Assembly (NCBI GenBank): GCA_003141835.1
Contig: PLNR01000011.1
Location: forward strand, 107,804 to 171,803
Length of the DNA stretch: 64,000 bases
Direction of reading: 5' to 3'
From: Candidatus Omnitrophota bacterium
GTDB taxonomy: Bacteria; Omnitrophota; Gorgyraeia; Pluralincolimonadales; Pluralincolimonadaceae
The notes beneath the pieces are model-generated. The model made no database searches. It was given only the letters and a program-made list of their open reading frames with translations, and was not told the DNA's origin. The translations under genes were made by a program, and so were the position numbers. Shown here piece by piece: positions 3,125 through 42,538 of the stretch (the first letter of the stretch is position 1; each line of letters starts with the position of its first letter).

Positions 3125-4315
3125 TCATAGCCTTTGATACAGTTCCATATATTTATCCACGCCGGAAGCCAAAGAAAAATAATTTTCCGCCGCGGCGCGG
3201 CATTTCTTCTTTACGGTATCCCCCCCGTCAACCAGCGCCAGGGCTTCCCGCGATGCTCTCTCATAATTGCCGGGTGAGTTATCCAGCACCACCCCTATCC
3301 CCTCTTTTTCTATTATCTCTCCCGTATCCCCTATGCCGGAATTGATCACGACCGGCAAGCCGCATGAGAGGCTTTCGGCGAATTTGATCGGAGAGCAGCC
3401 GGCGCCGGAGAGCTCCCTCTTATAAAACATGACAGACATATCAGAGCCGCATAAAGCACCGGGTACGTCCGCGAAATCCAGATTTTCCACCGCATAATCT
3501 TCGGGATCAATACCCCCATTTTTGACGGCGCCTTTAACTTCTTCGGCGTCGGAATTCGTGGCTACCCGGAAAAAAGCGTCTTTCCTGATCTTCTTGAAAT
3601 ATTTGAAAAAGGCGATCGACCCCTCAAGGTCGTAGAAAGTGCCTGAGCTCCCTAAATAGATAAGTACGGTCCTGTTTTTTGCGTTTTCGGGCAAAATACT
3701 TTTCCCCGGTTTACAGCCGAATAGGTCAAGGTCGACACAGCAGGGAATTACCGTGACCCGCGCCCCGGGATGGTTTGTTTTGAGCCGCTTCATTGCCGCT
3801 TCGCTTAAAACTACGACCTCGTCACTCCTGTTCACGAGGAACCTTTCTATCCCGTTGAACAAATGATATAAGGCACTCTTCCTGCCCCATGCGCCGCCGT
3901 CCACTTTCTCGTCCGGCCAAAAACCCCTCATGTCGAATATAAGCTTCCTGCCGGAAAAACCTTTCAGCATCACGCCGATCAAAGCAGGTATATAACCCCT
4001 CGCATGGATGATCTTGACATTATTTTTAAGCATACAACGGATCCCCGTAAAATAACCCGAAAAAATATCCATAATAGTGGCGGGAATAGCCGGCCGTTTA
4101 TGGTATCTGAGCAAAAACCAGCCTATTCCGGATCCCTTAAGCTCATCTTTACGGGCATCGAGAGCCGCGTGCCTTTCCAGCTTATCATTTTTTTCGAAGC
4201 TGATGACTGAAATATTGAATTCCCGCGATGCCAACTTCTTGAGATAAGGCAGGACCTGGGACCGCGCGACCGGGTCCAGCAGACCGTCGTAAGTTATATA
4301 CAGGATGCCTTTCAT
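3125..4315 (-). CDS. Glycosyltransferase, GT4 family.
   Basis: GT4 N-terminal domain followed by a GT1 C-terminal domain. The ORF extends to 4339, but the internal ATG at 4315 forms an ATGA overlap with the upstream gene's stop, so that start was chosen. Confidence 0.72.
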   Translation of the reverse strand: MKGILYITYDGLLDPVARSQVLPYLKKLASREFNISVISFEKNDKLERHAALDARKDELKGSGIGWFLLRYHKRPAIPATIMDIFSGYFTGIRCMLKNNVKIIHARGYIPALIGVMLKGFSGRKLIFDMRGFWPDEKVDGGAWGRKSALYHLFNGIERFLVNRSDEVVVLSEAAMKRLKTNHPGARVTVIPCCVDLDLFGCKPGKSILPENAKNRTVLIYLGSSGTFYDLEGSIAFFKYFKKIRKDAFFRVATNSDAEEVKGAVKNGGIDPEDYAVENLDFADVPGALCGSDMSVMFYKRELSGAGCSPIKFAESLSCGLPVVINSGIGDTGEIIEKEGIGVVLDNSPGNYERASREALALVDGGDTVKKKCRAAAENYFSLASGVDKYMELYQRL

Positions 4316-5730
4316 GGTTTTCGCCTGACAGCGTCCCATTTCGAGAAACCATAAGCCGCAAATACAAAGGCTACAGGCATAAACATGTCTTTATGCCGGA
4401 AAGCCGTGCCGATGTTACTTTCGTAAACGGCCATGGGAATAATGATCATCGATAACAAGACCGTAAACATCAACGCCGTGTAAGGCTCTTTCTTTAAGTA
4501 AATTAGCCAGCCTTTTATGACGAACGGGACCATAAGATACCAATAAATGACTTGCGGATAAAAAGGAAGAAAATTAAGCGACCAGTTTCCTAACGGGAAC
4601 GGCGCGAAGAAGAAATAAACTAGCCCCTTGAAGATCGTAACCAAATAGCTGAAAGAAAAAACATCGTTTGCAGTCAACGCCCTCTGTTGATATGCCCAAA
4701 CGGAGTATATCCTGTAATTGGCCGCTGAGATCTCTCCGAGCACGGTGCTCGGGATATTGCCGCTGGCTAAATAGTTTGCCGCGTCGACGATTTTCGAGAC
4801 CACCATCGATTTATATAATAAACAAAAACATGCGATGTAAATAACCACAAATAACAGCGAGATCTTAAAAGTGGACCGCCTCCTCGACTTAAGCATCGCA
4901 AATAAAGATGAGGCCAGCGCCAGGCCAGCGCCGGCCAATAACACCACCAACATCCTCGTACGGAACAAATTGTTGAGATAGGCGAATAAGACAGCCCATA
5001 ATATGAATACCATTTTCTTTTTGGTTATAGCCTTGACAATGAAGAATAAATAAACCAAAACAAGCAGGTTAGAAAGCGTATCGCGCAAGGCTGTGACGGA
5101 CCAATAAAAAATTGACGGGAAAAGCGCGAAGATAGCGGCGGCGATCCTGGCGGGCCTCTCTTCTTCAAGCAGTTGGCGCGCTATCAGGTAAACCATTACG
5201 ATGCTTATGCACCCGAACAGGCTGTTGAGCATTTTAGCCGCGATAGGCGCGTACCCAAGCCAGGCATACAGGATCCCCAGTAAGAATGTGTAAACACCGA
5301 ATTGGTATCCGGAGACGGGAGGAAATTTGTCATTATAATAAGTCCGCTCTATATTCATCCTCTTGGCCAAATACGGGTCTTTAGCCATCACCAAATTCTC
5401 TTCTGTGGGATCATTTTTTAATAAATGCGCAATATAAAAAGCATTCCCGCTGTAGACTGTCGCGTCCGGCTGGGTATCGCCTCCCCAGAACGGGCGCTCT
5501 GACCCCACATTATAATTGACCACGCAGAACAGCGCCCTCAGCGCGAAGCTTATGATGAATAACTTTATCAAAAAGCCCGAAGACTCTGTTTTGACAAAAA
5601 CCTTTATAATGAACACAGAGCACAGGAAGAGGAGAAAGATGAACAATCCGGCGGGATAAAAAGTCATAAAGAGCCCCGCGGCGATGCCGGTTAAAACCAG
5701 GATTAATGTCTCTTTTTTGGTAAGCATCAT
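4312..5730 (-). CDS. Polytopic inner-membrane protein (>=10 TM). Candidate O-antigen polymerase (Wzy-like) or GT-C-fold glycosyltransferase.
   Basis: 472 aa and highly hydrophobic, with a loop containing PFWGGDTQPD. No soluble catalytic motif is visible. Confidence 0.5.
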   Translation of the reverse strand: MMLTKKETLILVLTGIAAGLFMTFYPAGLFIFLLFLCSVFIIKVFVKTESSGFLIKLFIISFALRALFCVVNYNVGSERPFWGGDTQPDATVYSGNAFYIAHLLKNDPTEENLVMAKDPYLAKRMNIERTYYNDKFPPVSGYQFGVYTFLLGILYAWLGYAPIAAKMLNSLFGCISIVMVYLIARQLLEEERPARIAAAIFALFPSIFYWSVTALRDTLSNLLVLVYLFFIVKAITKKKMVFILWAVLFAYLNNLFRTRMLVVLLAGAGLALASSLFAMLKSRRRSTFKISLLFVVIYIACFCLLYKSMVVSKIVDAANYLASGNIPSTVLGEISAANYRIYSVWAYQQRALTANDVFSFSYLVTIFKGLVYFFFAPFPLGNWSLNFLPFYPQVIYWYLMVPFVIKGWLIYLKKEPYTALMFTVLLSMIIIPMAVYESNIGTAFRHKDMFMPVAFVFAAYGFSKWDAVRRKP

Positions 5731-5732
5731 AT

Positions 5733-6725
5733 TTACATCTTCCTCGCTACGATAAATATACCCCCGATGAGCAGGTTTTCATCGGAAAGCCGCTTGAATT
5801 CCGCAAGCAGCCGGGGCCTTATCTCCTCGATGGTCCTGAGATCCCCGCCGTCATAATCTATCCCTCTTGCTATCAGTTTTTTGTGAGGGACTATCTCGCC
5901 CTCGCGCGTCATCAAATTCGTTATCCGGGCATTGTAATCGTATCCGAGCCCCTTAAACTTCTCTTCGAAGTAATCCGCCCTCTTCCTGTTAGGTTTACCG
6001 CAATGTTTTGTCATCAGCGCCCAGGTATAAGCCGGTATCGTCAGGAAAAAGAACGGATTGTACCCGTCGCGCGTGAACATCCCGTGGTCCCGAAGGTCGA
6101 CTTTATGTATGTGATAACCGCCCTTTTTTAAATATTTATCCATGGCGTCGATCGCGGAATCTATGTCATAGACATGTTCGAGCGCCGCGCGGGAGATGAT
6201 CACATCAAAACTTTCGCCTTTAACCGCCTTATCCGCATCTTTTATATCCACGCCGTAAATATATTTTATCCTGTCACCGCAAAACCTGGCCTTGCCGTCT
6301 TTTAATATAACGGCTGAATCGAAGCGCTCCCTTTCCCCGGGGCCAAGCCGGTCCCTTAAGGCTGTGTATATCCCGTGTTGCTGGCGTTCATTTCTTGACG
6401 GATATATCCTGTCGATACAGGCGACTTTAGCGGCTCCGGAGGCTATGAGCCTCAGAGCCACGCCCAGGTTGTCTCCCGGGCCTATCTCCAGGACGCTCTT
6501 ACCTGATAAGTCGGCTTTTCCCAAGCCCGAATATTTCATATAATCATCATATACGGTATCTATGTAAGAGACGCTTTTCTCCAGCGAGAACCCGGTGTGG
6601 GTCGAGCCTATATGGAAGACATACCGGCCCGCCTTCAATTTTGCGGCGCTTACCCGGTCCTCAAGTATGTGTTTTGCTATCTTTAGCGCCTTGATCTTCC
6701 TTATGCTTTTCATTAATCCTGTCAT
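5733..6725 (-). CDS. Class I SAM-dependent methyltransferase.
   Basis: Motif I VLEIGPGDNLG. 330 aa. Confidence 0.7.
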   Translation of the reverse strand: MTGLMKSIRKIKALKIAKHILEDRVSAAKLKAGRYVFHIGSTHTGFSLEKSVSYIDTVYDDYMKYSGLGKADLSGKSVLEIGPGDNLGVALRLIASGAAKVACIDRIYPSRNERQQHGIYTALRDRLGPGERERFDSAVILKDGKARFCGDRIKYIYGVDIKDADKAVKGESFDVIISRAALEHVYDIDSAIDAMDKYLKKGGYHIHKVDLRDHGMFTRDGYNPFFFLTIPAYTWALMTKHCGKPNRKRADYFEEKFKGLGYDYNARITNLMTREGEIVPHKKLIARGIDYDGGDLRTIEEIRPRLLAEFKRLSDENLLIGGIFIVARKM

Positions 6726-6743
6726 TATCTTATTTTCCCGCGC

Positions 6744-8303
6744 TTATTTTTCAAATTTTACTATATCTATGTTCCTGAACCGGTGTTTTTCCACCGCCGT
6801 ATAGCCCTCTTTCTTCAGGAAATCGTCCACCTGCGCATACAGGCCGAATAACTCGAAATGCCCCTGGACCCTGTATAACCAAACGCTTCGGCAAGGATTG
6901 ATCTTTTTCCTGATATCGGCCCAGGCCTGGTCCGGCAGCGGCATGTAAGCGGATCTTTGCGTGTTCAGGCTTATGAACCGCCCTTCTATAATGACGGCAT
7001 TTTTGGACACTGATACGTCCGGCGGAGAATTCACGCAAATAAGACGGTCATTTTTCGCCAGGTTTCCATTCAAAAATGCTATCGATTTCCGGTAGTCAAA
7101 TTCGGGCGAGACCGCCGCAGGTATCCTGGAGGCGAAAACCAATAATATTAAAGACAAGGATATGATCGAAACCCACCTGTTCCTTGACCACAGGCTACCT
7201 ATAAAAGCCGCGACCAGCATTAAGAACATTGAATGCGAAACCGCAAAATATTTTGCTGTCGGCAGCGTATTTAGAAATCCGGCAAATAACCAGGAAAAGA
7301 ACAAAGGCAGGAAAGCCAGGAAGAAAGGAAGCCACAACAAGCGGTTTTCCCCGGCATTTTTAAACTTATTTTTCAGGAAACTGAAACTGTTATAAACAAA
7401 GAAAATAAGCGCTCCACATGAGGCAACCACTATCGAGGCTAGGGCCGCCTTCGAGAAATGTGCCTGTACCCCGCCCGGAAGGACCATGAATGAAGGATCT
7501 AACCCTGCCAATGATGCTAAATTCCTGACATATAAGCCAAGGCGAAGCGGTCCCACGTTAAAGCCCTTGTCTGACCAATCGTAATAGATGCTCGACGCGT
7601 TACGGAATTGCCCTAAAGCTGACGGCACCCATGGCGCGAAGACCAGGCCGGCTGCGGCCAATGACAGGATCCACTTAAAGATAAGCTTTTTATCTCTCCC
7701 CATGAACAGGACGACATATACGAACTGGGAGAAGATGAACAACGCGGAAAAGTAGAAAGTATAAAGGGCTAACGCGGAAGCCGCCGTATAGGCGGACCAG
7801 TCAAAAAGCGTATCCTTCCCCTTGATTATCCTTATCATGAAATACGTTGATAATAATAACCAAAACGCGGAATCGGAATAACTCCGCAGGATCTGGGAGA
7901 CGGATATCAAAAGCGGCGAAAATACGGCAAGTAAAAGCACGAGCAAGGCGAATTTCCCGCCTAAGTATTCTTTGGCTATCAGATAGGCCAAAAGACAACT
8001 GCCTGCCCCGAACAGAACGAAATACATCCTCAGCCAGGCGGTCGAATCATTGATAAACGACCACAGGTGCACCAGGGTATAGGTCAAGGGAGGGTATATC
8101 TCCCTGCTTTTCAGCTCGCCTATCATCTTATCGAGACCCATGTGCGCCATCTCCACAAGCGAGCTTTCGTCCCCGGAATACTCCTTGCCCAGGTTGACCA
8201 TCCTTACGGACAGGCCGATGGCAAGCAAAATGCAGACGATAAGCAACGAATGATAGAACCTGTTATTTAAGGAGGAGCTATTTATCTTTTTGGGCATTTT
8301 CAT
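6744..8303 (-). CDS. GT-C-fold membrane glycosyltransferase, ArnT/PMT (GT83/GT39)-like.
   Basis: 519 aa and polytopic. An acidic DE motif sits in the first extracytoplasmic loop (…KEYSGDESSL…), followed by an ArnT/PMT-like hydrophobic core (FALLVLLLAVFSPLLI). Confidence 0.62.
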   Translation of the reverse strand: MKMPKKINSSSLNNRFYHSLLIVCILLAIGLSVRMVNLGKEYSGDESSLVEMAHMGLDKMIGELKSREIYPPLTYTLVHLWSFINDSTAWLRMYFVLFGAGSCLLAYLIAKEYLGGKFALLVLLLAVFSPLLISVSQILRSYSDSAFWLLLSTYFMIRIIKGKDTLFDWSAYTAASALALYTFYFSALFIFSQFVYVVLFMGRDKKLIFKWILSLAAAGLVFAPWVPSALGQFRNASSIYYDWSDKGFNVGPLRLGLYVRNLASLAGLDPSFMVLPGGVQAHFSKAALASIVVASCGALIFFVYNSFSFLKNKFKNAGENRLLWLPFFLAFLPLFFSWLFAGFLNTLPTAKYFAVSHSMFLMLVAAFIGSLWSRNRWVSIISLSLILLVFASRIPAAVSPEFDYRKSIAFLNGNLAKNDRLICVNSPPDVSVSKNAVIIEGRFISLNTQRSAYMPLPDQAWADIRKKINPCRSVWLYRVQGHFELFGLYAQVDDFLKKEGYTAVEKHRFRNIDIVKFEK

Positions 8304-9066
8304 ATCGCTTTATTATGTCTCTTAAATGGGCCTTGCTGCTCGCGACCTCTTTCCCTATGAGTCCGAAATAACTTAAGAGCGTCTTTGATTTGTTCATCTT
8401 GCTCTTGCCCTTCCTGAAATCGCAGCGGAGTATCATCGGCACTTCCTTGATGCGGATCGGCAAACGGTTCAGGTTTATCAGCAACTCCACCATGCAAATA
8501 AACCCCTTATACTCGATAAGGCGGTTATCGTAAGCGTAAAATGCCTTTTTTAACATACCCGCCCTGTAAGCCCTGTAAAATGAACTGTAAGTATTGACCC
8601 CCTTTATCGGGAAGAATAATTTTAAAAGCGTGTTTGCTGCCGAGCTTAAGACCACGCGGTCGAGCGTCGTCCCCACTACTTTCCCGCCGGGGGCATAACA
8701 AGAGGCCAGGACCAGGTCATTCCCGTCATTTACTTCTTTTAACATCGCCTCCAGGATATCCAGGTCGCTCGTGTTGTCGGCTTCCTTAGTCACGATGATG
8801 TCATTATCTCCCGCGGTTTCCAACGCCCGCGAGAAACCTGCCTTAAAACCCTCTCCGACCCCTTTGCCTTCGGGGAAATCTATTATCTCCAGCGGTATCT
8901 TGTCTTTAAAACCTTGCGCCAGCTTCAGCGTAGAATCGGTGCTCCCGTCGTTTATCAATATTATCCGGTAGCCGATACCGAGCTTCCCGGTCTTCGCCGC
9001 CAGGTTTGAAAACAATCGATCGATATTTTCTTCTTCGTTCCGCGCCGGAATAATGAATATGACCAT
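8278..9066 (-). CDS. GT2 polyprenyl-phosphate glycosyltransferase (ArnC/DPM1/GtrB-like).
   Basis: MVIFIIPARNEEENI…ILINDGSTDST is a GT2 DXD-type fold. The track ORF starts at a TTG at 9123; the ATG at 9066, preceded by GGGAG, is the more likely start. Confidence 0.75.
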   Translation of the reverse strand: MVIFIIPARNEEENIDRLFSNLAAKTGKLGIGYRIILINDGSTDSTLKLAQGFKDKIPLEIIDFPEGKGVGEGFKAGFSRALETAGDNDIIVTKEADNTSDLDILEAMLKEVNDGNDLVLASCYAPGGKVVGTTLDRVVLSSAANTLLKLFFPIKGVNTYSSFYRAYRAGMLKKAFYAYDNRLIEYKGFICMVELLINLNRLPIRIKEVPMILRCDFRKGKSKMNKSKTLLSYFGLIGKEVASSKAHLRDIIKRYENAQKDK

Positions 9067-9080
9067 GTTGTTTATCTTTT

Positions 9081-9782
9081 TTATCTCCCTTGTTTGACCG
9101 CGTAGATCAGGTAACGCCAGCAAAAATGCTTTTGCAAACGCAGTTTGCGAATGACATTGTTAAGTAATTTATCCGTGGCTATTACGGCCTTCTTTACCGG
9201 TTTTATATTCGGCACTAGTTCGCTTCCGACAAATCCGCCGCTCAAGGGAAAGGCGATCACGTCCCTTAACCTGCATTCCCTGACATTGAACCCGTTGGCC
9301 TCCAGGACGTCGACTACTTTGTCCAGGGGCGCTTCCGGATCCACGTGTTTTATCAGTTTCCTCGAAAACCTGAGGATCCAATTCGGGTTCGGGTCAAAGA
9401 TTATCAATTCTTTGCGGCAAACCCTTCTTATTTCCTTTAGGGCCAGTTCAAAGGAGGCATCGGCCGCGATATGGTGGATCGCCTCCCTCAGGATGACCGT
9501 GTCAAAGGAGTCATCGGGGAATTCCAGTTTACATACCGACATATTCCTTACATCGATACCATACAGTTTCTTTGCCATCCTTATCGATTCCGGGTCGATA
9601 TCGATTCCTGTTATCTCTATATCACCCTTCTCCCTCCTGATCTGGTCTATGAGGCTCCCGTAACCGCAGCCTATATCCAATACCCTGCGGCCGGTTATCA
9701 GCTTTATGATGTCCGAGTTCTGGAGCCTTGCGACGTCGCCGTAGAACCTCTTTAGCCGTCTCTCTGGCTGCGGAACATTCAA
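9081..9782 (-). CDS. Class I SAM-dependent methyltransferase.
   Basis: VLDIGCGYGSL motif I. 233 aa. Confidence 0.75.
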   Translation of the reverse strand: MNVPQPERRLKRFYGDVARLQNSDIIKLITGRRVLDIGCGYGSLIDQIRREKGDIEITGIDIDPESIRMAKKLYGIDVRNMSVCKLEFPDDSFDTVILREAIHHIAADASFELALKEIRRVCRKELIIFDPNPNWILRFSRKLIKHVDPEAPLDKVVDVLEANGFNVRECRLRDVIAFPLSGGFVGSELVPNIKPVKKAVIATDKLLNNVIRKLRLQKHFCWRYLIYAVKQGR

Positions 9783-10768
9783 ACCGGCCTCCTTAGCATA
9801 TTTTGCGCCCTTAGCCCGTCACAAAAAGACCGGAGCGTGACAGGCTCGTAATATCTTTTTACCTTATCCAGAATATCCCTGAACATCTCCTCTTTTCTTT
9901 CCAGGCCAAGGCGGAAGCCCGGGTGGTTAAGGGATAATTTATCGCTTCCGGAGGAGAGCATGTCCGTCGAATGGAAGTTATAATTGAGGTTCCCTCCCCG
10001 TGCCCTCGTGGACCAGAGGCCGAAGTCAAACAGCCCGGGGCCCATTAGAAATAAAAATGTGGTATTGAACGGCATCCCAAGGAACGGAACTACGCTCAGC
10101 GGCACTTCCAGGATCTTCCTGCCGGCACTTTTCCGCCAGAACCTGCCCTGGCTCGGCGTATACGGCTCCATCGGCGAAAAAATCGAATAAAAAACCTCAG
10201 CCGGCAGGTTTTTAAAGATACGGGATTTAGGGACCTCGTCCAGGTTTACATAACTGGCCCTCCTCATGAGGGGATATGCGGGAAACTTATAGAGCGAGGA
10301 ATCATAGGAATATCCCATCCTGTCCAGTATCTCTATAGTCTCCTCATCCACATCGTATCCCGGGACACGGAATCCCACCGGCGCCTCCCCGCAAGTATCC
10401 TTTATGAGCTGCGTAGACTCGGCGATGTCCTTATACTTCTCGCTCTTTGGCATGAGCGAAAAAGCAAATCTATGGTCCAAACTGTGGTTTGCTACCTCAT
10501 GGCCCTTTAATATGATCTCCCTGACGGCTTTTTGGGTGGCCGGCTTGCGGCAATCACTCGCCACGACAAAGAAAGTGGCTTTTATGCCTCGCTCGTCGAA
10601 TAACTTCAGGAACCTCGGCACAGCCAACTCGTACACGGGATCCTTGCCGTTAAAGCCACTCTCCTTCTTGCCGTAGAACTTAAGCACTGAGTCGATCGAA
10701 TCAACGTCTACCGATATAGTGCAGCGAGGCGTTTTGTCCGGAGAAACCATTTTATGCTTATGCCCCAT
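9779..10768 (-). CDS. Polysaccharide deacetylase family protein (NodB-homology, ArnD/PgdA-like).
   Basis: GHEVANHSLDH matches the NodB metal-binding motif HE(V/I)xNHS..H. 329 aa. Confidence 0.62.
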   Translation of the reverse strand: MGHKHKMVSPDKTPRCTISVDVDSIDSVLKFYGKKESGFNGKDPVYELAVPRFLKLFDERGIKATFFVVASDCRKPATQKAVREIILKGHEVANHSLDHRFAFSLMPKSEKYKDIAESTQLIKDTCGEAPVGFRVPGYDVDEETIEILDRMGYSYDSSLYKFPAYPLMRRASYVNLDEVPKSRIFKNLPAEVFYSIFSPMEPYTPSQGRFWRKSAGRKILEVPLSVVPFLGMPFNTTFLFLMGPGLFDFGLWSTRARGGNLNYNFHSTDMLSSGSDKLSLNHPGFRLGLERKEEMFRDILDKVKRYYEPVTLRSFCDGLRAQNMLRRPV

Positions 10769-11363
10769 TCCTGTCCTTTACCTCAAAATAATCACCAAGA
10801 TCGTCGGTGTATTCTATCCCGAGTTTCTTGAGCATCTTTATCGATCTCGCGTTCTTCTTGGATACGGCGGAGTGCGGCTCGAACTTCAGTTTCCTTATAA
10901 GATCGAGTTGTTTCCCGAGAGCGGCTGTCCCTATGCCCTTGCCCTGCCATTTATCGGATACGAATATGGCGTACGACGCCCTCTTTGGGAATAATAACCT
11001 TATAAGGGCATATCCGACCAGATCGTCGTTATGGAAGATGCCCAGCGGGATATGCGAGACCATTTTAAATATCTTCTCAATAGACCCGGCGTCCGTCTTG
11101 TGCGGCATCACATAGTCCGGGCCGCCGGCCTTTATTGAATATTTGAAAAAGTCGCAGACCTTGGCCTGACCGGAAGCGCCAAGTACCCTGATCACGAACT
11201 CCTCCCCGCCTGCGGAAAAGGCCTCGGCATAACCCTTTGACGGGCCTAACTGCCCGGATAAGAATGACTTTATATACAATTCGTTCACAGACAGGATAAG
11301 CTTATAGAGGAAGCCCTGCTTTTTCTGTATATTCAGCATAAAATTAAGGAGGTTCTTGTTCAT
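10758..11363 (-). CDS. GNAT-family N-acetyltransferase.
   Basis: Q/R-x-x-G-x-G/A-like acetyl-CoA loop (WQGKGIGTAAL). 201 aa. Confidence 0.7.
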   Translation of the reverse strand: MNKNLLNFMLNIQKKQGFLYKLILSVNELYIKSFLSGQLGPSKGYAEAFSAGGEEFVIRVLGASGQAKVCDFFKYSIKAGGPDYVMPHKTDAGSIEKIFKMVSHIPLGIFHNDDLVGYALIRLLFPKRASYAIFVSDKWQGKGIGTAALGKQLDLIRKLKFEPHSAVSKKNARSIKMLKKLGIEYTDDLGDYFEVKDRNGA

Positions 11364-12343
11364 CTTGCCTTAAGCAGCGAGCGCCTGCGCTCCTCTATCG
11401 TAAGCCTTATGCCATCGGTTATCTTAACGCCCGGGCGGTATCCGAGGACCGCCTTCGCTTTCCGCAGGTCCGGCACCCTCCTAGTTATCTCTTCATACGT
11501 GCCGAATATCCTCTTGTGCGGGATGAATTTTATTTTAAGCCGTTTCCCGGTAGCCGCGATCTTATGGATAAGATAAGCGGTATCCGCGACACTCATCTCC
11601 TCGTCATTACCGATATTAAATATTTCGCCCGCCGCTTTCGGGCTTTCCATGGCAAGGACCGTCCCCCGCACCACGTCATCTACATAGGCCATGGACCGGG
11701 TCTGTTTCCCGTCGCCGTGGATCAGTACTTCCTTATCGTTAAGGATGGCGTCTATGAACAGGGGCACATGCCCGCCGCTCCAGCTGAAGCTCGCCCTCGG
11801 GCTGAAACTCCCGAAATAGCGCAGCACGACAACCGGCACGTTAAATTCCTTGAAATAAGCGAAAGCTAATTGTTCCGCATAGATCTTTGACGCGGCATAA
11901 GCCCATCTCTTCGCGGTCGGGGGGCCGATCACCAGGTTCCCGTCTTCCTTGAAAGGCAAATCCCTGGAAACGCCGTAAACGTCGGAAGTCGAAGCGAGTA
12001 TGACCTTTGCCCGCCTTTTCCTGGCGATCTCCAAGACATTGCGCGTTCCCTCGGCGTTGATCCTCAAAGTATTGAAGGCGTCACCCTTCTCATCGATCTT
12101 CTTGGATGCGGCTAAATGCACGATGGTATCGATATCCCCGGCGGCGCGCTCCAGTTTTTTAGGGTCCAGTATGTCGCATTTTACGAATTTAAAATTAATA
12201 TTGTCCAGGTTATGCTTAATATTGGGCATCCTGCCGACCTTAAGATTATCTATACCCGTGACTTTATAACCAGTTCCAAGCAGGGAATCCAAAAGATGGG
12301 ACCCTATCATCCCTGCTACCCCTGTTATCAGGACTTTTTTCAT
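11360..12343 (-). CDS. NAD-dependent sugar-nucleotide epimerase/dehydratase (extended SDR).
   Basis: TGVAGMIGSHL Rossmann motif and YxxxK region. 327 aa. Confidence 0.8.
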   Translation of the reverse strand: MKKVLITGVAGMIGSHLLDSLLGTGYKVTGIDNLKVGRMPNIKHNLDNINFKFVKCDILDPKKLERAAGDIDTIVHLAASKKIDEKGDAFNTLRINAEGTRNVLEIARKRRAKVILASTSDVYGVSRDLPFKEDGNLVIGPPTAKRWAYAASKIYAEQLAFAYFKEFNVPVVVLRYFGSFSPRASFSWSGGHVPLFIDAILNDKEVLIHGDGKQTRSMAYVDDVVRGTVLAMESPKAAGEIFNIGNDEEMSVADTAYLIHKIAATGKRLKIKFIPHKRIFGTYEEITRRVPDLRKAKAVLGYRPGVKITDGIRLTIEERRRSLLKAR

Positions 12344-12349
12344 TATCGC

Positions 12350-13414
12350 TTATCCCTTATGTTTTTCCAGGATATCTGCTATTTTTTTGTGCGCTGTCCC
12401 GTTCCCGTAGACGCTTTCGGGATCGGCATGTTTTCTCGGGCCCTTATAAATATCCCTAACCGCCTTGACCAGTCTTTCCCCGGAAGCGCCGACGAGCGCG
12501 TTCATGCCTTTATCCACGGTTTCAACCCACTCGGTTTCGTTGCGTAAAGTGACGCAGGGGACCCCAAAAATGAAAGCCTCTTTCTGCACTCCCCCGGAAT
12601 CCGTAATTATCACTGGCGCGTCCTTTTCCAGCTTTAGCATCTCGATATAACCGACAGGCCCGATGAGCTTGATATTCCCGGATACCTTGATGCCGTATTT
12701 CTTCAAGCACCCGGCCGTCCTTGGGTGGAGAGGGATCAAGACCTCCTTCCCCAGTTTAGCCAGTCCCGCAAATATTTGCCTCAGGTTCGCGGGATCATCG
12801 GTATTTTCCGCCCTGTGTATCGTGCATAAAATACGGCCTCTCCCGGCCGCGGTAAGCCCTGCCTTATCGATAATGCGCCGGTATTTTTTTATGGAATCAT
12901 ACATGACATCGCCGACCAAGTATACGCCATTCGTCTTACCTTCTTTTTTCAAGTTTCCCACCGCGGTCTTTGTGGGACAGAAGAACAGGCTGGAAACGCC
13001 ATCCGCAACTATCCTGTTGATCTCTTCCGGCATCCTCTTATTATAGCTTCTCAGGCCGGCCTCGATATGCGCGACGGCGATATTCAATTTGGCGGCTGCG
13101 AGCGCCCCGGCTAAAGTGGAATTTGTATCCCCGTATACCAGGACGATATCAGGCTTATCTTTTACCAATATTTTTTCTATTCCCGCAAGCATCCCGGCCG
13201 TCTGCTCCCCGTGCCGGGCCGAACCTACGCCGAGGTTATAATCCGGCCTTGGAATTTTCAGTTCTTTGAAAAATATCCCGGACATGCACTTATCGTAATG
13301 CTGGCCTGTGTGGATGACTACCTCTTTTATATTCCTCGACCTAAGCTCCCGGGAAACCAGGGCCATCTTTACGAATTGGGGCCTTGCCCCTATGACCGTC
13401 GCTATCTTTTTCAT
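12350..13414 (-). CDS. UDP-N-acetylglucosamine 2-epimerase (WecB/WbpI/NeuC family).
   Basis: N-terminus [13 protein letters not shown]…HTGQHYD is diagnostic for the family. 354 aa. Confidence 0.85.
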
Positions 13415-14004
13415 CTATTTTCGCGCACTACTTTTGTTTTATTCTTTTTGTATTTCTTCAGGCAATTTTTGCACACGGCCCGGCCGTTCCTGAAATCCAG
13501 CTTCTCCCCGCATTCGCACATCCATCCGCATAACGCGGCCGGGTTGCCGTAAACAAGCGCGTAGTCCGGGACGTCTTTTGTAACAACCGATCCCGCTCCG
13601 GCGAAGGCATAAGCGCCGATCGTGTTGCCGCATATGATAGTCGCGTTGGCACCTATGCTGGCGCCGCGCTTGACCAGCGTATGCCGGATCTCGTCCATCC
13701 TCGGGACGGCGCTCCTGGGGTTGAATACGTTGGTAAAGACGCAGGAGGGCCCGCAGAATACGTCGTCCTCAAGCGTCACGCCCTTGTAAACCGAAACGTT
13801 GTTCTGGACCTTGACATTATTCCCTATCGACACATCCGGCCCGATCACGACGTTTTGCCCGATCCTGCAATCCTTTCCGACCCTGGAACCTTTCAATATG
13901 TGGGAAAAATGCCATATCTGAGTCCCCGCCCCTACCGTTGCGCCTTTATCCACATAGGAGGATTTATGGGCGCTGAAGACCTTCTTCTTGTTATTCTTTT
14001 CCAA
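13411..14004 (-). CDS. Left-handed beta-helix (hexapeptide) sugar N-acetyltransferase, WbpD/PglD-like, with a C-terminal Cys-rich tail.
   Basis: Repeated [LIV]GxxxxI hexapeptides. Tail motif [23 protein letters not shown]. Confidence 0.78.
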
Positions 14005-15007
14005 TTTTTACCGGCCTCCCGTTTTTATCGAGGGACTTTTGCGCGGCGGTCAGCACCCTCAGGACCTGCAACCCGTTCTTTCCGTCAGTCACGGGCCTCG
14101 TATTGTTCTTTATTGAATCGATGAAATGCTGGCATTCGACTTTTAAGGGCTCGACCATGTCGATCCTGGGTATATGTATATCCCCCTCGCGTATGGTCAG
14201 GAACGCGTCATAACTGCTTTGCCCCTTCTGCCAATCGACGCCTTTATCGTAAACGCGTATCTTTTCCGTCGCTTCCATATCGTCGAATACGACCATTTTC
14301 TTCGAACCCACGACCGTAAATTTCCTTACCTTATGGGGGTCGAGCCAGCTGGCGTGAATGTGCGCCATCATCTTGTTATCGAAATTCAGCGACACGAAGA
14401 CCACATCTTGTACCGAATCGCGGATATAGCATTTGCCCGTGGCCGAGACCTCTTTCGGCATCTTATCAGCCAGGTAGATGGCGAGCGATATGTCATGGGC
14501 TGTCAGGCTCCATAAGGCATTCTCCTCGGCCCTCACCTGCCCCAAGTTCACGCGGGTGGAATACATGTAATTCAGATCCCCCAACGAACCGTCTTCGATG
14601 TATGATTTAAGTTTCTTCGCGGCGGGATGGTAAAGCAGCAAATGGCCTACCATAAGGATCTTTTTGCTCTTCTCCGCCATCCTGACCATCTTTTCCGCGT
14701 CTTCAACGCTCAGCGCCAGGGGTTTTTCTACGAATACGTGTTTCCCGGATGAGAGCGCCTTTAACGTGAGCCGGGCGTGGGTCTCGGAGGGCGTGGTTAT
14801 GACGACCCCGTCTATCTCTTTGTCTTTTATTATGTCGTCGAAATCATGTGTAAACTTTGTGCCGCACCTGAGGCTCTCCGGAATTTTATCCAAAGCCTCC
14901 TTATTTTTGTCGCAGCAAGTCTTTAAGCAGCAATTTTTCAAGCCCGAAAAGACCCTGAAATGATTTTTACCCCAGAAACCCACTCCTGCCTGGCCAAGTA
15001 CGATCAT
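13991..15007 (-). CDS. Gfo/Idh/MocA-family NAD-dependent sugar-nucleotide oxidoreductase (WbpB-like).
   Basis: N-terminal Rossmann motif [12 protein letters not shown] with an EKPLALS-type motif. 338 aa. Confidence 0.8.
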
Positions 15008-16131
15008 TGCGGACCTCCTCTTCGTTCTGTCAGTTCCCGATACAGCCCTTCAAGGCTTTGGACATAATCTTTGGGCAAGTAAGCCGACTCAATCTTTTTT
15101 CTCGACCTGGCGGCGAAATCGCCGCGCAATGGTTTGTCGTTATACAACTCCAAGATCCTGTTTTTCAAAGCTTCAGGGTCTCCGGGCGGGACTAAAAACC
15201 CGTCCTCCCCTTCTCTTACGATTTCGGGTATGCCGCTGATATCCGAGGCCACCACCGGCAGTCCCGTATACATCGCCTCGATCAAAGTACGCGGGAAACC
15301 TTCCTGCAAAGACGGCAGGACAAACACATCCATCGCCTTCATAAGCCCGGGAATATCAAACCTGGCCCCTAAGAAAACTACTTTGTTTTCGATCCCCAGG
15401 GACCGGGCCAGGGCCGTCAATTCCGCCCTGCTCTCCCCTTCGCCTATGATAAGTGTTTTCAGCCGCGGTATCTGCCCATCGAGCCCCTTGACAGCTTCTA
15501 TCAAGAACCTGTGCCCTTTTTTAGGGATAAGCGAACCTACGGTCCCGACTATGAAATCTTCGCCAGAAAACCCGTATTTTTTCCTTAGGGCCTCTTTCGT
15601 CCCGGGAATATTAAATCTCTCCGCATCCACCGCGTTGTAGATAAGATAAAATTTATCTTCAGCTATGCCTTCCTGCTTACGGGTAAAATCCAGGACAGAC
15701 CTGGAGCAGACGATGATCCTGTCGGTGAAACCGGCCAATATCCTGTCCAGGATAACGTGGTAAAATTTCTTCTCCGTATACATGCTTCTTTCCTCGGTCA
15801 CGATAAAGCGCGGATTACAAAACAGCGAGGCGGCCCTCCCGAAGAAATTTGCATAAAAAAGCGACGTATGCAAGATATCCGGCTTCTCCTTCTCCAGGAT
15901 CAAGGCTATCTTTCTTATCAAAGATATGTTAAAGAGCCTCGCCTTGCTATCCAGGCATGTCACCTTGAAGCCCAGCTTTTCGATCTCTTCCGCGATCCGC
16001 CCCTTCTTTTCTATGCTGACTACGCTGCAGTCGAAACGGCTTTTGTCTATGTTCTTTAAAGTCGTCAGCAGGCCCACTTCCGCGCCGCCGTAATCCAAAT
16101 GCACAAAAAGGAAAAGGACTTTTATCTTCAT
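15004..16131 (-). CDS. Glycosyltransferase, GT4 family.
   Basis: GT-B fold with the C-terminal EGFPRTLIEAMYTGLPVVASD motif. 375 aa. Confidence 0.82.
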   Translation of the reverse strand: MKIKVLFLFVHLDYGGAEVGLLTTLKNIDKSRFDCSVVSIEKKGRIAEEIEKLGFKVTCLDSKARLFNISLIRKIALILEKEKPDILHTSLFYANFFGRAASLFCNPRFIVTEERSMYTEKKFYHVILDRILAGFTDRIIVCSRSVLDFTRKQEGIAEDKFYLIYNAVDAERFNIPGTKEALRKKYGFSGEDFIVGTVGSLIPKKGHRFLIEAVKGLDGQIPRLKTLIIGEGESRAELTALARSLGIENKVVFLGARFDIPGLMKAMDVFVLPSLQEGFPRTLIEAMYTGLPVVASDISGIPEIVREGEDGFLVPPGDPEALKNRILELYNDKPLRGDFAARSRKKIESAYLPKDYVQSLEGLYRELTERRGGPQ

Positions 16132-16973
16132 CTTAATTTTTTAAGGATGAGGCTGAATTGGGGAGCGCAAGCCGGGAAAAAGACCTTATTGACCGTCCCG
16201 GCGGCCCTTGGCCGCTCTTTGTAATGATAGATTATTTTAGCCTCGTACCCCTTAAAAACGCCTTTAACCAGGCCCGGTATATCGAACCCTTTACCGGGGT
16301 CTATCTTTTTCCCCGCGTTAGGCGAATGTATATCGACGTATTTTAACAGCTCCGCAACAGGTAAAGGCTTCCCGATAGTCTTGTCCGAGAGCAGCCTCTC
16401 GTTCACTCGCCTGCATATCGCTTCATATGAAGGGCCGGCTTTTGAAGCACCTCCTATCCTGGCGATGATCCTGTAGAGCAATGACAAGGGCCGGTTCGCC
16501 CAAAACTTCCGGTTCGCCTCAAAACCTATCACCAGGAAGCCGCCGTCCTTTAAAACACGCCCTGCCTCCCCGGCAAAGCTTTCAATAGAGGGGAAATGGT
16601 GCATCGCCGCGTTACAGGTGACGATATCGAAGGTCCCGGCCTTAAAAGGCAGGTTTTCCGCATCGGAAATTATATAGCCGAGGCGCACACCCCTGTTTTC
16701 GTTCGACTGCCTTGTCTTGTTAAGCATCCCGAAGGAGATATCTGAACATATAAAATTGTATTTCCCGGCATTTAAGCTTGACGGGACCAGGCCTGTGCCC
16801 GTGCCGATGTCCAGGATATCCGCGTGTTCTTTGCCTTTGAAATAACCTTCAAAAAAACTTTTATAGAAAAGGGACTCGGCATCGATCCTGGACCTGTGCC
16901 TTTTTTCAAAGAACGCCGCTTCTTCGTCATGAAAATACCGGTTGATCTTTTTAATAAGCGCGTTTTCCGTCAT
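16128..16973 (-). CDS. Class I SAM-dependent methyltransferase.
   Basis: ILDIGTGTGLV motif I and AAMHHF post-II motif. 281 aa. Confidence 0.75.
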   Translation of the reverse strand: MTENALIKKINRYFHDEEAAFFEKRHRSRIDAESLFYKSFFEGYFKGKEHADILDIGTGTGLVPSSLNAGKYNFICSDISFGMLNKTRQSNENRGVRLGYIISDAENLPFKAGTFDIVTCNAAMHHFPSIESFAGEAGRVLKDGGFLVIGFEANRKFWANRPLSLLYRIIARIGGASKAGPSYEAICRRVNERLLSDKTIGKPLPVAELLKYVDIHSPNAGKKIDPGKGFDIPGLVKGVFKGYEAKIIYHYKERPRAAGTVNKVFFPACAPQFSLILKKLR

Positions 16974-18017: not shown

Positions 18018-18898
18018 TTCGCCGAAACGCCGGAGTAGTCATTCAATAAGTAATCCCTCAGCGCGTCCTTCCAGTTACGCATACCGTCAAGCCCGATCTC
18101 TTTCAGGCGAGAATTCTCCATGGCTTCTGACCGCCCCCTGGGAGCCGGCAACGGAAACACGGAAGAGCTTACCGGAACTATCTCGACTTTGTTCAGCCCC
18201 AGGATATTCTTGATTTCGAGCGCTATATCATATCGCGAAACCATCCCATGATTGGCCATGTGGTATAGCCCGGGGCTGCCTCTCTCTATCAACTTTCCGG
18301 TGCATGCCAGGAGATCCTTGGCATAAGTCAGGCTTCCGAATTTATCATTTACGGCCTTGATGGAATTGGATCCGGCCATCATGCGCGCTATCTTCCCGAC
18401 AAACTTAACATCCTTGCCGCCGCCACCCACCATCCATCCTGCTCGTATTATAAAATAATCTTTGAGCCGCGAAGCAATTATACCTTCGGCCTCAAGTTTA
18501 GTTTTACCATAAAAATTCAACGGCCCTGTCTTGTCCGCCTCTATATACGGAAGCGGTTTCGAACCGTCAAAAACCGCGGCGGAACTTAAAAATACAAGCT
18601 TCACCCCGTTATTCTTACAGGCTGACACGACGTTTTCCGTGCCCGTGACATTGACCTTACGAGCCCAATCCCTGTCAGTTTCACATCTATCAACATCCGT
18701 AGCGGCAGCGAGGTGCAGCACCAGGCCAGGAGAAGTTTTTTCTACCGCGATCATTACAGAATCGCGATCGCATATGTTTAAATCTGCCAAGTCGGTAAGT
18801 ATGCATTCGGCATCATTAAATACCTGTTTCACATAACTGCCGACCATGCCGGAACCGCCGGTAACCAAAATACGGGTTATGCTATTAATCTTCGGCAT
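18014..18898 (-). CDS. RmlD-like NAD(P)-dependent 4-ketosugar reductase (dTDP-4-dehydrorhamnose reductase family). Second copy in the window.
   Basis: VTGGSGMVGSY and HLAAATDVDRCETD resemble the RmlD substrate-binding region. 294 aa. Confidence 0.68.
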   Translation of the reverse strand: MPKINSITRILVTGGSGMVGSYVKQVFNDAECILTDLADLNICDRDSVMIAVEKTSPGLVLHLAAATDVDRCETDRDWARKVNVTGTENVVSACKNNGVKLVFLSSAAVFDGSKPLPYIEADKTGPLNFYGKTKLEAEGIIASRLKDYFIIRAGWMVGGGGKDVKFVGKIARMMAGSNSIKAVNDKFGSLTYAKDLLACTGKLIERGSPGLYHMANHGMVSRYDIALEIKNILGLNKVEIVPVSSSVFPLPAPRGRSEAMENSRLKEIGLDGMRNWKDALRDYLLNDYSGVSAK

Positions 18899-35631: not shown

Positions 35632-36261
35632 CTAAGTTCTTTCCTTGATCTTGACGGCCGGCACTCCCGCCAAAACTGAATTTTTTCCATACCTGCCCTC
35701 CCTTACAAGCGCCTTTGCGCCGACAACGCACCCATCCTCAAGGACCGCACCTTTCATGATCGCCGCGTTAGCCGCTATCCAGACATCGTTGCCGATGGAT
35801 ATCTTACCGTAAGTGTGTTTCTGGTCCTTTATCAGGGCGCCTTTACCGAAACCGTGCTGCGACGACTGTATGAAGATCATCCCTGAAATAAGGCAATCCT
35901 CTCCGATCGTGACATCCGTGCCGCAGTTAAAAAGGCAATATGGGCCGATCGAGGTGCGCTTGCCTATTTTTAAAATGGCGTCATTAGCCGAAACGAACCT
36001 GCAATCGTTATCTATCGCGACCCCGTCTTCGATGACTATCCTGCCGTTCTCCCTGTTCCTTATGTCTATGTCCCCGAAGATAGAGACGTTATCGCCTATC
36101 GAGATGTTGCGCGGATCACCTCTTAATTTCAATTTAGGGATGCCCTCTATGTAAAAATTCTTACCGACACGGATGCCATAGATCTTCAGTATGCTCTTGA
36201 TCACCCAGCTGTGGAAATAGCAGTATTTCTTGTTAGTTACCAGCGCGAGAAAATCAGGCAT
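35632..36261 (-). CDS. Hexapeptide-repeat (LbH) acyl/acetyltransferase.
   Basis: Multiple [LIV]Gxx hexapeptide turns (IGDNVSIFGDIDI…VIEDGVAIDNDC…). 209 aa. Confidence 0.7.
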   Translation of the reverse strand: MPDFLALVTNKKYCYFHSWVIKSILKIYGIRVGKNFYIEGIPKLKLRGDPRNISIGDNVSIFGDIDIRNRENGRIVIEDGVAIDNDCRFVSANDAILKIGKRTSIGPYCLFNCGTDVTIGEDCLISGMIFIQSSQHGFGKGALIKDQKHTYGKISIGNDVWIAANAAIMKGAVLEDGCVVGAKALVREGRYGKNSVLAGVPAVKIKERT

Positions 36262-42535: not shown

Positions 42536-42538
42536 ATT

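Follow-up and report, generated by a model that had tools for sequence, protein, structure and literature searches.

A probable Arn-like lipid-carrier sugar relay within a large surface-glycan gene cluster of an uncultured Omnitrophota bacterium

In Francisella (FlmF2/NaxD/FlmK) and Bordetella (LgmA/B/C), GalN or GlcN is added to lipid A: a GT2 makes the polyprenyl-P-HexNAc, the N-acetyl group is removed while the sugar is still on the carrier, and a GT-C then carries out the transfer, giving a cationic sugar. In the rhizobial Rgt system, a UDP-GlcA 4-epimerase of the SDR type supplies the sugar. There, one GT2 donor synthase (RgtE, bactoprenyl-P-GalA) serves several PMT_2-type GT-Cs (RgtA-D/F), which attach a sugar from a UDP-uronic acid to LPS core and lipid A; RgtE with RgtD/F is a precedent for a GT-A plus GT-C relay (PMC7663294). 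Such relays have further precedent with several acceptors: in the streptococcal Pgf and GtrB/PgtC2 systems and in Gtr O-antigen glucosylation a GT-A makes the Und-P-sugar and a GT-C transfers it outside the cytoplasm (PMC12041528).

The window analysed here is a stretch of 64,000 nucleotides from a Candidatus Omnitrophota bacterium (contig PLNR01000011.1). An earlier note had pointed to a GT2, a NodB deacetylase, a GT-C and two methyltransferases between 5733 and 10768 and had read them, with sugar genes elsewhere in the window, as the Ara4N lipid A modification pathway. All five genes are indeed present by their Pfam domains, on the minus strand. Synteny in Omnitrophota MAGs outlines a larger conserved unit (about 4312-13414) with a WecB-like epimerase, a divergent UXS-like SDR, a GNAT, the CE4 deacetylase, a methyltransferase, the GT2, GT-C1 and a second GT-C. 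Four of these genes (GT-C2, the SDR, the GNAT and the epimerase) had been overlooked, and all four accompany the module in related genomes. Neighbouring genes across the unit overlap by 4-26 bp or are separated by gaps of at most 18 bp. The genes are as follows.

4312-5730, minus strand, GT-C2, second PMT_2-type GT-C membrane protein (PMT_2, 29.9 bits)
5733-6725, minus strand, MT2, class I SAM methyltransferase (Methyltransf_23, E 7.7e-10)
6744-8303, minus strand, GT-C1, polytopic GT-C glycosyltransferase (PF13231 PMT_2, 32.0 bits)
8278-9066, minus strand, TM-less DPMS-like GT2 (PF00535, E 7.5e-19)
9081-9782, minus strand, MT1, class I SAM methyltransferase (Methyltransf_11, E 1.3e-19)
9779-10768, minus strand, NodB/CE4-fold deacetylase (PF01522, E 5e-20)
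10758-11363, minus strand, GNAT N-acyltransferase (PF00583, E 3.1e-9)
11360-12343, minus strand, divergent UXS-like extended SDR (structure matches, alignment, synteny)
12350-13414, minus strand, WecB/WbpI-like non-hydrolysing UDP-HexNAc 2-epimerase (TIGR00236, 322.5 bits against a cut-off of 210; PF02350, E 2.9e-104)
13411-14004, minus strand, WbpD-like hexapeptide acetyltransferase (Pfam match)
13991-15007, minus strand, WbpB-like Gfo/Idh/MocA oxidoreductase (Pfam match)

The unit is surrounded by a surface-glycan gene cluster of more than 50 kb. Cytoplasmic GT1, GT2 and GT4 genes flank the module, a Wzx gene is situated just past the window, and an LptD-like gene is present in the cluster context. 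The other GT2 of the cluster (16992) is of the ordinary type. We consider it reasonably likely that the unit encodes a lipid-carrier sugar relay within this cluster.

The GT2 (262 aa, its start agreeing with the public gene call) contains no hydrophobic segment and none of the TM helices of the GtrB type; TM-less catalytic subunits (DPM1/Ppm1 types) occur in the dolichyl/polyprenyl-phosphate mannose synthase family. Its best solved-structure match is PfDPMS (1.1e-16, followed by GtrB at 4.5e-8 and ArnC at 3.5e-6), and the alignment extends through the juxtamembrane-helix region. The top NCBIfam matches are AglJ, PgfS and a haloarchaeal dolichyl-phosphate hexose transferase, with ArnC in fifth place; polyprenyl-phosphate GTs make up three of the five best NCBIfam matches and also the best solved-structure matches. 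The protein retains a carboxylate-x-Asp motif for the metal as well as counterparts of R131, S135 and RGESK in PfDPMS, and E95-A-D97, R137, S141 and R218-x-G-x-S-K are invariant. The GT2 and PfDPMS are about 25% identical. The DADLQ motif has become an invariant EADNT, and an invariant Cys aligns with PfDPMS R117 / ArnC R128, which bind the acceptor phosphate. Because this Cys replaces the acceptor-phosphate Arg in the alignment, the acceptor of the GT2 could differ. We regard the protein as a candidate polyprenyl-phosphate glycosyltransferase, with polyprenyl phosphate as its presumed acceptor.

GT-C1 passes the proposed PMT_2 HMM check (PF13231, cut-off 26.1 bits), and a grouping with O-antigen ligases or Wzy does not apply. 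The protein has about 11 TM helices, and its soluble C-terminal domain, some 120 aa long, is periplasmic; the public call has a TTG start at 8246, 19 codons downstream. Confidence in the structure model is no more than moderate (pLDDT 72). TM1 is followed by an invariant GDE, which fits a catalytic GT-C. GT-C2 likewise exceeds the PMT_2 cut-off and has about 11 TM segments, and BLASTP finds no significant similarity between it and GT-C1. Its orthologues (33-35% identity) occur in the related loci L003 and L004, while L002 and L005 carry PMT_2 genes at the same position. The slot between the two GT-Cs, filled here by MT2, is variable: L002 and L004 have a B12-binding radical SAM gene directly after GT-C1, and L003 has one between its two GT-Cs.

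One could also imagine that there is no relay and that the GT2 is an ordinary cytoplasmic GT extending an Und-PP-linked repeat unit. The CE4, the GNAT and the methyltransferases would then tailor nucleotide sugars or the repeat unit, and the GT-Cs would act independently, for example in association with a polymerase, a ligase or a flippase. The missing TM helices, the Cys at the acceptor-phosphate site and the non-canonical EAD motif of the GT2 would agree with this, as would the sole NCBIfam match of GT-C1, a weak one to the flippase-associated Agl23; moreover, gene clustering alone does not prove coupling. We nevertheless find this explanation unlikely. The GT2 matches Pren-P GTs best and not repeat-unit GT2s, whereas the other GT2 of the cluster is of the ordinary type. 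The GT-Cs need a lipid-linked donor, for which the unit holds no other candidate synthase, and the invariant GDE is in keeping with catalysis by GT-C1. In addition, the window and loci L002-L005, L007, L010 and L011 each have a GT-C1 orthologue or a PMT_2 protein beside the GT2, an adjacency that survives gene-order shuffling in divergent loci.

A relay could instead serve protein O-glycosylation of the PMT or Pgf type, the GT2 making the lipid-linked sugar and the GT-Cs modifying Ser/Thr-rich regions of secreted or membrane proteins. The Pgf system also has an epimerase and two GT-Cs, but PgfM1/PgfM2 are YfhO-type GT-Cs and not PMT_2 proteins (PMC12041528). More generally, the GT-Cs of the Pgf, PgtC2 and Gtr systems are of YfhO or GtrC types, their GT2s carry TM helices, their acceptors are proteins or O-antigen, and they have no tailoring trio. 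The module, in contrast, is part of a conserved operon that also contains sugar-nucleotide genes and genes for cytoplasmic GTs and a Wzx flippase, the window holds no candidate acceptor protein, and the fold search is indifferent to the acceptor. A protein acceptor therefore appears quite unlikely to us.

The donor sugar is best approached through the conserved partners of the GT2. Each of the eight related loci with a GT2 orthologue has an SDR orthologue (48-71% identity) upstream of it, either adjoining it or within one to four genes of it; the compared loci are not independent, five being orthologous clusters. Including the window, the SDR-GT2 pairing is kept in nine loci despite varied gene order, and the WecB-like epimerase, with which the SDR forms the conserved donor-sugar pair, is the immediate upstream neighbour of the SDR in the window, L002-L005 and L009. 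The closest solved relative of the SDR is human UXS1 (E 1.5e-48), then B. cereus UDP-GlcA 4-epimerase (7.5e-40), with ArnA reaching only 4e-23. The alignment spans the whole protein, with STSDVYG for STSEVYG and with YxxxK and QTR retained. The SDR is a candidate for a C4-oxidising decarboxylase or a 4-epimerase acting on a UDP-(N-acetyl)hexuronic acid. Decarboxylation of UDP-GlcNAcA to UDP-XylNAc is a precedent (PMC5078965). WbpB/D-like genes join WecB-SDR in two loci, the window and L009; in L009 the pair, a DegT and an NDP-sugar dehydrogenase are contiguous with WecB-SDR-GT2, and these WbpB/D-like enzymes possibly catalyse upstream steps of the donor sugar. The epimerase, the divergent UXS paralogue and the WbpB/D-like genes are syntenic with the GT2 and therefore indicate a sugar other than Ara4N, probably an N-acetylated amino sugar from a uronic acid.

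The Ara4N reading deserves a closer comparison. The predicted ugd (50642-51967) is an NDP-sugar dehydrogenase with UDP-glucose 6-dehydrogenase as best match. Of the label UXS/ArnA-like decarboxylase for 43240-44169 the UXS part stands, as this is a canonical UXS by its motifs and by its match to human UXS1 (E 5e-111). An ArnB-like aminotransferase is found as well: the DegT at 39247-40392 is 41% identical to E. coli ArnB, and a second DegT (44166-45287) 33%. A genuine 4-aminopentose pathway modifying lipid A or core would run from Ugd (UDP-GlcA) through the UXS or the SDR (4-keto-pentose) to amination by a DegT; the GNAT would N-acetylate in place of a formyltransferase, the GT2 would load undecaprenyl phosphate, the CE4 would deacetylate, and the GT-C would deliver the sugar to lipid A. 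Every catalytic type is present, Ugd included, the genes for the canonical UXS and a DegT share 4 bp, and the GNAT beside the CE4 would account for the absent formyltransferase. The CE4 falls in ArnD's fold neighbourhood, the LptD-like gene implies LPS, and the distant locus L007 has a consecutive GT2-SDR-DegT-GT-C.

These types are, however, unlikely to form one pathway. At a distance of 33-43 kb, Ugd, the UXS and one DegT belong to another operon, which follows a pair of NusG-like and HTH genes, and their neighbours there are Rml- and TviB/C-like. The other DegT is about 29 kb away among Pse-like genes, which could use it. In relatives, none of these genes keeps synteny with the module. The normal product of a canonical UXS is UDP-xylose and not a 4-keto sugar. 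The constant partner of the GT2, a UDP-HexNAc 2-epimerase, has no role in Ara4N synthesis, and WbpB/D-like genes accompany the GT2 in two loci. All Arn equivalog models remain far below their cut-offs. The GT2 was rejected as an ArnC orthologue (model 30 bits against a cut-off of 529; BLASTP with E. coli ArnC, 23% over 183 aa), as was the CE4 as an ArnD orthologue (21.5 against 382; E. coli ArnD, 24% over 99 aa, E 0.006). BLASTP with E. coli ArnT, ArnE/F and the formyltransferase gave no matches, and no GtrA- or ArnE/F-type flippase was found. The lack of an ArnA formyltransferase, which had already been remarked, holds: no Formyl_trans Pfam match appears among minus-strand ORFs of at least 150 aa, and the ArnA N-terminal domain finds no match in the window by six-frame tblastn. 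We consequently hold an Ara4N pathway to be very unlikely, and the Arn label is not sustained.

In the relay that we favour, the CE4 takes the ArnD-like role. Its catalytic motifs are intact, it has no TM segment, no signal-like N-terminus and no PgaB-like secretion signal, and it is cytoplasmic. The nearest structures are 3rxz, 3qbu and 1z7a, with ArnD ranking fifth; these three have been named as the closest relatives of ArnD (PMC10967932). The start of MT1 overlaps the CE4 stop by 4 bp. MT1 orthologues adjoin the CE4 in the window, L002, L003 and L005, as does a class I methyltransferase in L006 and L011, which gives six loci in all. GNAT orthologues occur in L002, L003 and L005, while L004 lacks GNAT, CE4 and MT1 all together. 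The CE4, MT1 and the GNAT may act on the lipid-linked sugar, but a nucleotide sugar or an Und-PP-oligosaccharide could equally be their substrate.

In summary, the evidence supports the proposed architecture, in which a synthase of polyprenyl-phosphate sugar is combined with a deacylase in the cytoplasm and a GT-C transferase facing the periplasm, and the gene set most likely works like the Arn (polymyxin-resistance) pathway yet is not that pathway. Both would have an SDR-tailored UDP-sugar with a protected amine put on polyprenyl phosphate by a GT2, deprotected by a cytoplasmic NodB-fold enzyme and transferred by a GT-C in the periplasm. In contrast to Arn, no protein here is orthologous, the GT2 is soluble, formyltransferase and ArnE/F are missing, and the module adds conserved GNAT and methyltransferase genes and two GT-Cs. 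The order of GT2, carrier-bound de-N-acetylation and GT-C would be that of the Francisella and Bordetella systems, and the use of one GT2 for several PMT_2-type GT-Cs would resemble Rgt as described, which has no deacetylase, GNAT or methyltransferase. We suggest that the WecB-like 2-epimerase and the UXS-like SDR, probably with the neighbouring WbpB/D-like enzymes in the window, would turn a UDP-HexNAc uronic acid into an unusual N-acetylated amino sugar linked to UDP, and that the GT2 would load this sugar on polyprenyl phosphate at the cytoplasmic face of the inner membrane. The CE4 would strip the N-acetyl group, a step done by ArnD via deformylation, and the co-inherited MT1 and GNAT would retailor the freed amine. 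After a flippase has carried the lipid-linked sugar across the membrane, GT-C1, and probably also GT-C2, would hand it to the acceptor, most likely the polysaccharide or LPS-type glycan that the GT1, GT2 and GT4 enzymes encoded nearby assemble together with the Wzx flippase. The relay thus most likely decorates, in the periplasm, the glycan made by the surrounding cluster.

All substantial ORFs of the 64-kb window lie on the minus strand. They include a single glycan-biosynthesis island, which runs from ~51967 leftwards and continues beyond the left end of the window; there, the matching ENA assembly ERZ27254250 (contig k141_150837, 222 kb) carries transglutaminase-like, Wzx-type flippase, DegT and radical SAM genes. 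Every gene named in the earlier note is indeed present, including the two embedded methyltransferases, while the interpretation given to them is only partly supported. The unit also contains a GNAT, a WecB-type 2-epimerase, an extended SDR and a second GT-C gene, all absent from that note, the last lying just outside its interval.

Genes of the module, in gene order
12350-13414, minus strand, WecB-type 2-epimerase (above the equivalog cut-off)
11360-12343, minus strand, extended SDR, related to UXS1
10758-11363, minus strand, GNAT
9779-10768, minus strand, NodB-fold deacetylase, CE4 (PF01522, E 5e-20)
9081-9782, minus strand, class I SAM methyltransferase, MT1
8278-9066, minus strand, glycosyltransferase GT2, 262 aa (PF00535, E 7.5e-19)
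6744-8303, minus strand, polytopic PMT_2 protein, GT-C1
5733-6725, minus strand, class I SAM methyltransferase, MT2
4312-5730, minus strand, second PMT_2 protein, GT-C2

Since neighbouring genes either overlap (by 4-26 bp) or lie no more than 18 bp apart, we regard the unit as one operon. The hydropathy scan gave no TM segments for GT2, CE4 and the methyltransferases. CE4 reaches 72 bits with PF01522 (cut-off 23.1), and across 20 homologues its motif residues D21, D23, H95, H99, R134-P136-G137-Y138 and H266 do not vary. For MT1, the PDB search returned generic class I methyltransferases only, so that both N- and O-methylation have to be considered.

The closest solved structure to GT2 is PfDPMS of P. 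furiosus (E 1.1e-16, query residues 3-235), followed in the PDB search by GtrB (4.5e-8) and ArnC (3.5e-6). Among the best five NCBIfam matches we found AglJ, PgfS, a haloarchaeal dolichyl-phosphate hexose transferase and ArnC, with PpgS in ninth place; all of these are polyprenyl-phosphate glycosyltransferases, and every score is far under its cut-off. The best matches of the GT-A domain of GT2 thus lie within the DPMS/GtrB/ArnC family. We compared the GT2 alignment with the family features described in PMC12690121. The family motif DADLQ(D/N/H) aligns to an invariant E95-A-D97-N-T-S in GT2, in which the carboxylates are kept and Gln is exchanged for Thr. The acceptor phosphate is bound by R117 in PfDPMS and by R128 in ArnC; the aligned position of GT2 is an invariant C123 within an ASCY motif. 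Equivalents of the second Arg (R131, here R137), of S135 (here S141) and of RGESK (here RKGKSK) are retained. ArnC ends in two C-terminal TM helices that follow juxtamembrane helices (PMC12690121), and the 262 aa of GT2 hold no hydrophobic segment, in line with the soluble type that had been proposed. The corresponding subfamily comprises proteins of 240-280 aa w/o TM helices; with 526 matches at E<=1e-15 it is far commoner than GT-C1. It is the EADNT motif and the Cys, together with the kept R131, S135 and RGESK equivalents, that make GT2, judged by its sequence, a distinct TM-less branch. GT2 likely belongs to the polyprenyl-phosphate glycosyltransferases, and sugar transfer to polyprenyl phosphate is its predicted reaction.

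The two GT-Cs both exceed the gathering threshold of PF13231 (32.0 bits for GT-C1 and 29.9 bits for GT-C2 vs 26.1). Because PDB sequence searches with GT-C1 and GT-C2 matched nothing, we turned to fold comparison. For GT-C1, this gave a GT-C fold rather than that of WaaL, Wzy or SEDS, and the objection that the protein might group with O-antigen ligases or Wzy therefore falls away. GT-C1 has ~11 TM helices and then a soluble C-terminal domain of ~120 aa; the public gene call begins at a later TTG than the 519-aa ORF. A G-D-E sequence after TM1 is invariant in ten GT-C1 homologues, and this acidic loop is predicted to be periplasmic because the N-terminus is basic. GT-C2 shows ~11 TM segments in the hydropathy scan and carries a putative GGDxxxD motif. 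A recent duplication of GT-C1 as the origin of GT-C2 is rejected, since the two share no significant mutual similarity. GT-C2 is kept in related loci. Close GT-C1 homologues are few, only 11 among 5.8 billion proteins. When 1.84 billion representatives were searched with a profile, 80 clusters matched at E<=1e-30, ~45 of them aligned full-length, and a further ~24,000 matches cover the N-terminal PMT_2 core only.

The earlier note had read the module as ArnC/ArnD/ArnT-like, after the Arn pathway that places Ara4N on lipid A. The remote genes cited there do exist. Ugd is present at 50642-51967, and the decarboxylase at 43240-44169 is a canonical UXS (human UXS1, E 5e-111) with an 11-residue motif and YDEAKR. 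In BLASTP with the E. coli K-12 Arn proteins, ArnC matches GT2 (23% over 183 aa, E 5e-9), ArnD matches CE4 (24% over 99 aa, E 0.006), ArnB matches the DegT at 39247 (41%) and the C-terminal domain of ArnA matches two window SDRs (27-28%). The closest structures of ArnD are 3RXZ, 3QBU and 1Z7A (PMC10967932), and CE4 lies in the same NodB1.2-like fold neighbourhood. Membership in the Arn families themselves is not borne out. GT2 reaches 30 bits with the ArnC model NF007986 (cut-off 529), and CE4 21.5 bits with the ArnD model NF011923 (cut-off 382). ArnT homology of the GT-C failed in every comparison, with no BLASTP match at E<=1, no PF02366 and no PDB sequence match. An ArnE/F flippase gave only noise in six-frame tblastn of the window and no BLASTP match. 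The formyltransferase of ArnA is missing, just as had been noticed from the DNA: Pfam Formyl_trans found nothing, six-frame tblastn with ArnA gave only noise, and the N-terminal ArnA domain had no match.

The aminotransferase needs a closer look. Two DegT proteins were found. We rejected the DegT at 39247 as a sign of the Arn pathway, since a PseC model scores it equally and its neighbours are NeuB, CMP-transferase and GNAT genes. Ugd, UXS and the second DegT share another operon with RmlA/B/D- and TviB/C-like genes; it lies upstream, set apart by a pair of NusG-like and HTH genes. The PseC-like score and setting of the one DegT, together with the separate Ugd/UXS operon, therefore turn the claim that every catalytic type of the Ara4N pathway is reconstituted into what is most probably a coincidence of superfamilies, and not a demonstrated pathway.

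The SDR at 11360-12343 and its neighbours bear on the donor sugar. Among solved structures, human UXS1 comes closest to the SDR (E 1.5e-48) and a UDP-GlcA 4-epimerase second, with ArnA much weaker. The score against human UXS1 is 169 bits, vs 374 bits for the canonical UXS at 43240. STSEVYG of UXS reads STSDVYG here (Glu to Asp), and Gly stands in place of the Asn of FNTFGPR, while the catalytic Tyr, Lys and Arg residues (YxxxK, QTR) are kept. From these comparisons the SDR is a divergent paralogue of canonical UXS. In the window, a Gfo/Idh/MocA protein, a hexapeptide acetyltransferase, WecB and the SDR follow one another from 13991 to 11360, in the same order as in the related locus L009, which has an NDP-sugar dehydrogenase, Gfo/Idh/MocA, hexapeptide acetyltransferase, DegT and WecB-like genes directly ahead of SDR-GT2. 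The sugar genes contiguous with SDR-GT2 in L009 (1-6849) are reminiscent of the WbpA/B/D/E/I genes for UDP-ManNAc3NAcA synthesis. For the SDR step there is a precedent in the known decarboxylation of UDP-GlcNAcA to UDP-XylNAc (PMC5078965).

We compared the synteny by tblastn of the window proteins against nine related loci (among them L002-L005, L007 and L009-L011). Because five of the compared loci are orthologous clusters, the loci are not independent observations. All named relatives of GT-C1, CE4 and GT2 come from Candidatus Omnitrophota MAGs. Wherever a locus bears a GT2 orthologue, an SDR orthologue (48-71% identity) lies upstream of it, either directly or within 1-4 genes. In the window, L002-L005, L007, L010 and L011, GT2 has a GT-C1 orthologue or PMT_2 protein as its neighbour or at a distance of 1-3 genes; a methyltransferase adjoins CE4 in six loci. 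The order itself varies, for example SDR-x-GT2-CE4-MT-GT-C in L011. In L004, GNAT, CE4 and MT1 are jointly missing, with WecB-SDR-GT2-GT-C1 and GT-C2 kept. The slot behind GT-C1 is taken by MT2 in the window and by a B12-binding radical SAM gene in L002 and L004; in L003 such a gene is found further along, between two GT-Cs. Because the co-occurrence outlasts this shuffling of gene order, we take the genes to work together, which is our main argument. In L007, from a distant relative, a giant surface protein of >2354 aa (13046-16924; Big_1, invasin and GDSL lipase domains) sits directly behind a GT2 orthologue, and the locus also has GT2-SDR-DegT-GT-C in a row. L007 may hint at an acceptor protein or at an Arn-like variant. 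A preprint on Omnitrophota genomes mentions hypervariable polysaccharide cassettes and nothing on this module.

The remainder of the window, all on the minus strand, holds further genes. The sugar-nucleotide operon upstream and the ~42 kb glycan operon downstream are divided by two genes (42026-43150), for a NusG-like paralogue (PF02357) and for a winged-helix HTH protein, which may act as an RfaH/UpxY-type antiterminator specific to the operon. Three B12-binding radical SAM proteins and one radical SAM/SPASM protein (18877-20370, 23262-24746, 28068-29474, 40389-41243), with up to five in related loci, suggest that sugars are tailored by radical chemistry, for instance by unusual C-methylation. 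Three AsnB-type glutamine amidotransferases share one cluster (128-2029, 32276-34171, 36254-37930); possible substrates for amidation are the carboxylates of uronic or nonulosonic acids. A GNAT, a GT28-like gene, NeuB, DegT and a CMP-sugar cytidylyltransferase (29482-32289 and 39247-41926) look like a set of pseudaminic- or legionaminic-acid type. At 43240-45287, the canonical UXS overlaps a DegT aminotransferase by 4 bp, a pairing that would fit 4-keto-pentose amination and is unusual for canonical UXS. No Pfam/NCBIfam match at E<=0.01 was obtained for a 593-aa soluble protein (26290-28071) and a 511-aa polytopic membrane protein (24750-26285); the latter is a possible Wzy-like polymerase. 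Adjoining Ugd, a 755-aa protein (51967-54234) weakly matches LptD and outer-membrane beta-barrels (E about 1e-13), implying that the envelope is diderm and transports LPS. Past a ROK-family gene and this LptD-like gene, near the upstream edge of the island, are two diguanylate cyclases (55291-58220; GGDEF, one with a GAF domain).

From these data we propose the following relay. The starting compound would be a UDP-HexNAc uronic acid, from which the epimerase and the UXS-like SDR would make an unusual UDP-sugar, by decarboxylation or, alternatively, by 4-epimerisation. GT2 would load the UDP-derived sugar onto polyprenyl phosphate, CE4 would remove the N-acetyl group, and MT1 and GNAT would retailor the amine. 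After flipping, GT-C1 and GT-C2 would attach the sugar to the glycan made by the neighbouring GT1, GT2 and GT4 enzymes and Wzx. In the Rgt system, one donor synthase likewise serves several GT-Cs (PMC7663294), and relays in general act on protein or polysaccharide acceptors (PMC12041528). We consider the relay as a whole rather probable and are less sure of the stage at which CE4 acts and of the identity of the sugar. LPS is a plausible acceptor, given the LptD-like gene. One may further speculate that the module is an independently assembled, Arn-analogous charge modification. The UXS paralogue would then decarboxylate a uronic acid of UDP-ManNAc(3NAc)A type to an N-acetylated 2-amino- or 2,3-diamino-pentose, GT2 with its EAD and Cys would load it, CE4 would de-N-acetylate and MT1 N-methylate it on the carrier, and the two new GT-Cs would put a cationic methylated aminopentose on LPS or a surface glycan. 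We think this elaborate version unlikely.

Polymyxin resistance, serotype conversion of the O-antigen and glycosylation of the cell wall all depend on relays of a polyprenyl-phosphate sugar synthase and a GT-C. Here we describe a variant in an uncultured phylum of ultra-small cells, in which the proposed relay is coupled to a deacetylase, methyltransferase and GNAT set and to a dedicated UXS paralogue. The logic is familiar. What is new, and can be tested, is that the tailoring trio is conserved, that the module has a UXS paralogue of its own, that the active site of GT2 is altered and that the GT-C subfamily is small. Should the chemistry turn out to be ordinary, the module would be a side-branch decoration of a hypervariable polysaccharide locus. 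If the proposed relay chemistry is true, three things would be new, namely a lipid-linked amino sugar, a soluble Pren-P GT subclass with an altered active site and a small GT-C subfamily, and there would be concrete enzyme targets with which to reconstitute the surface glycans of Omnitrophota.
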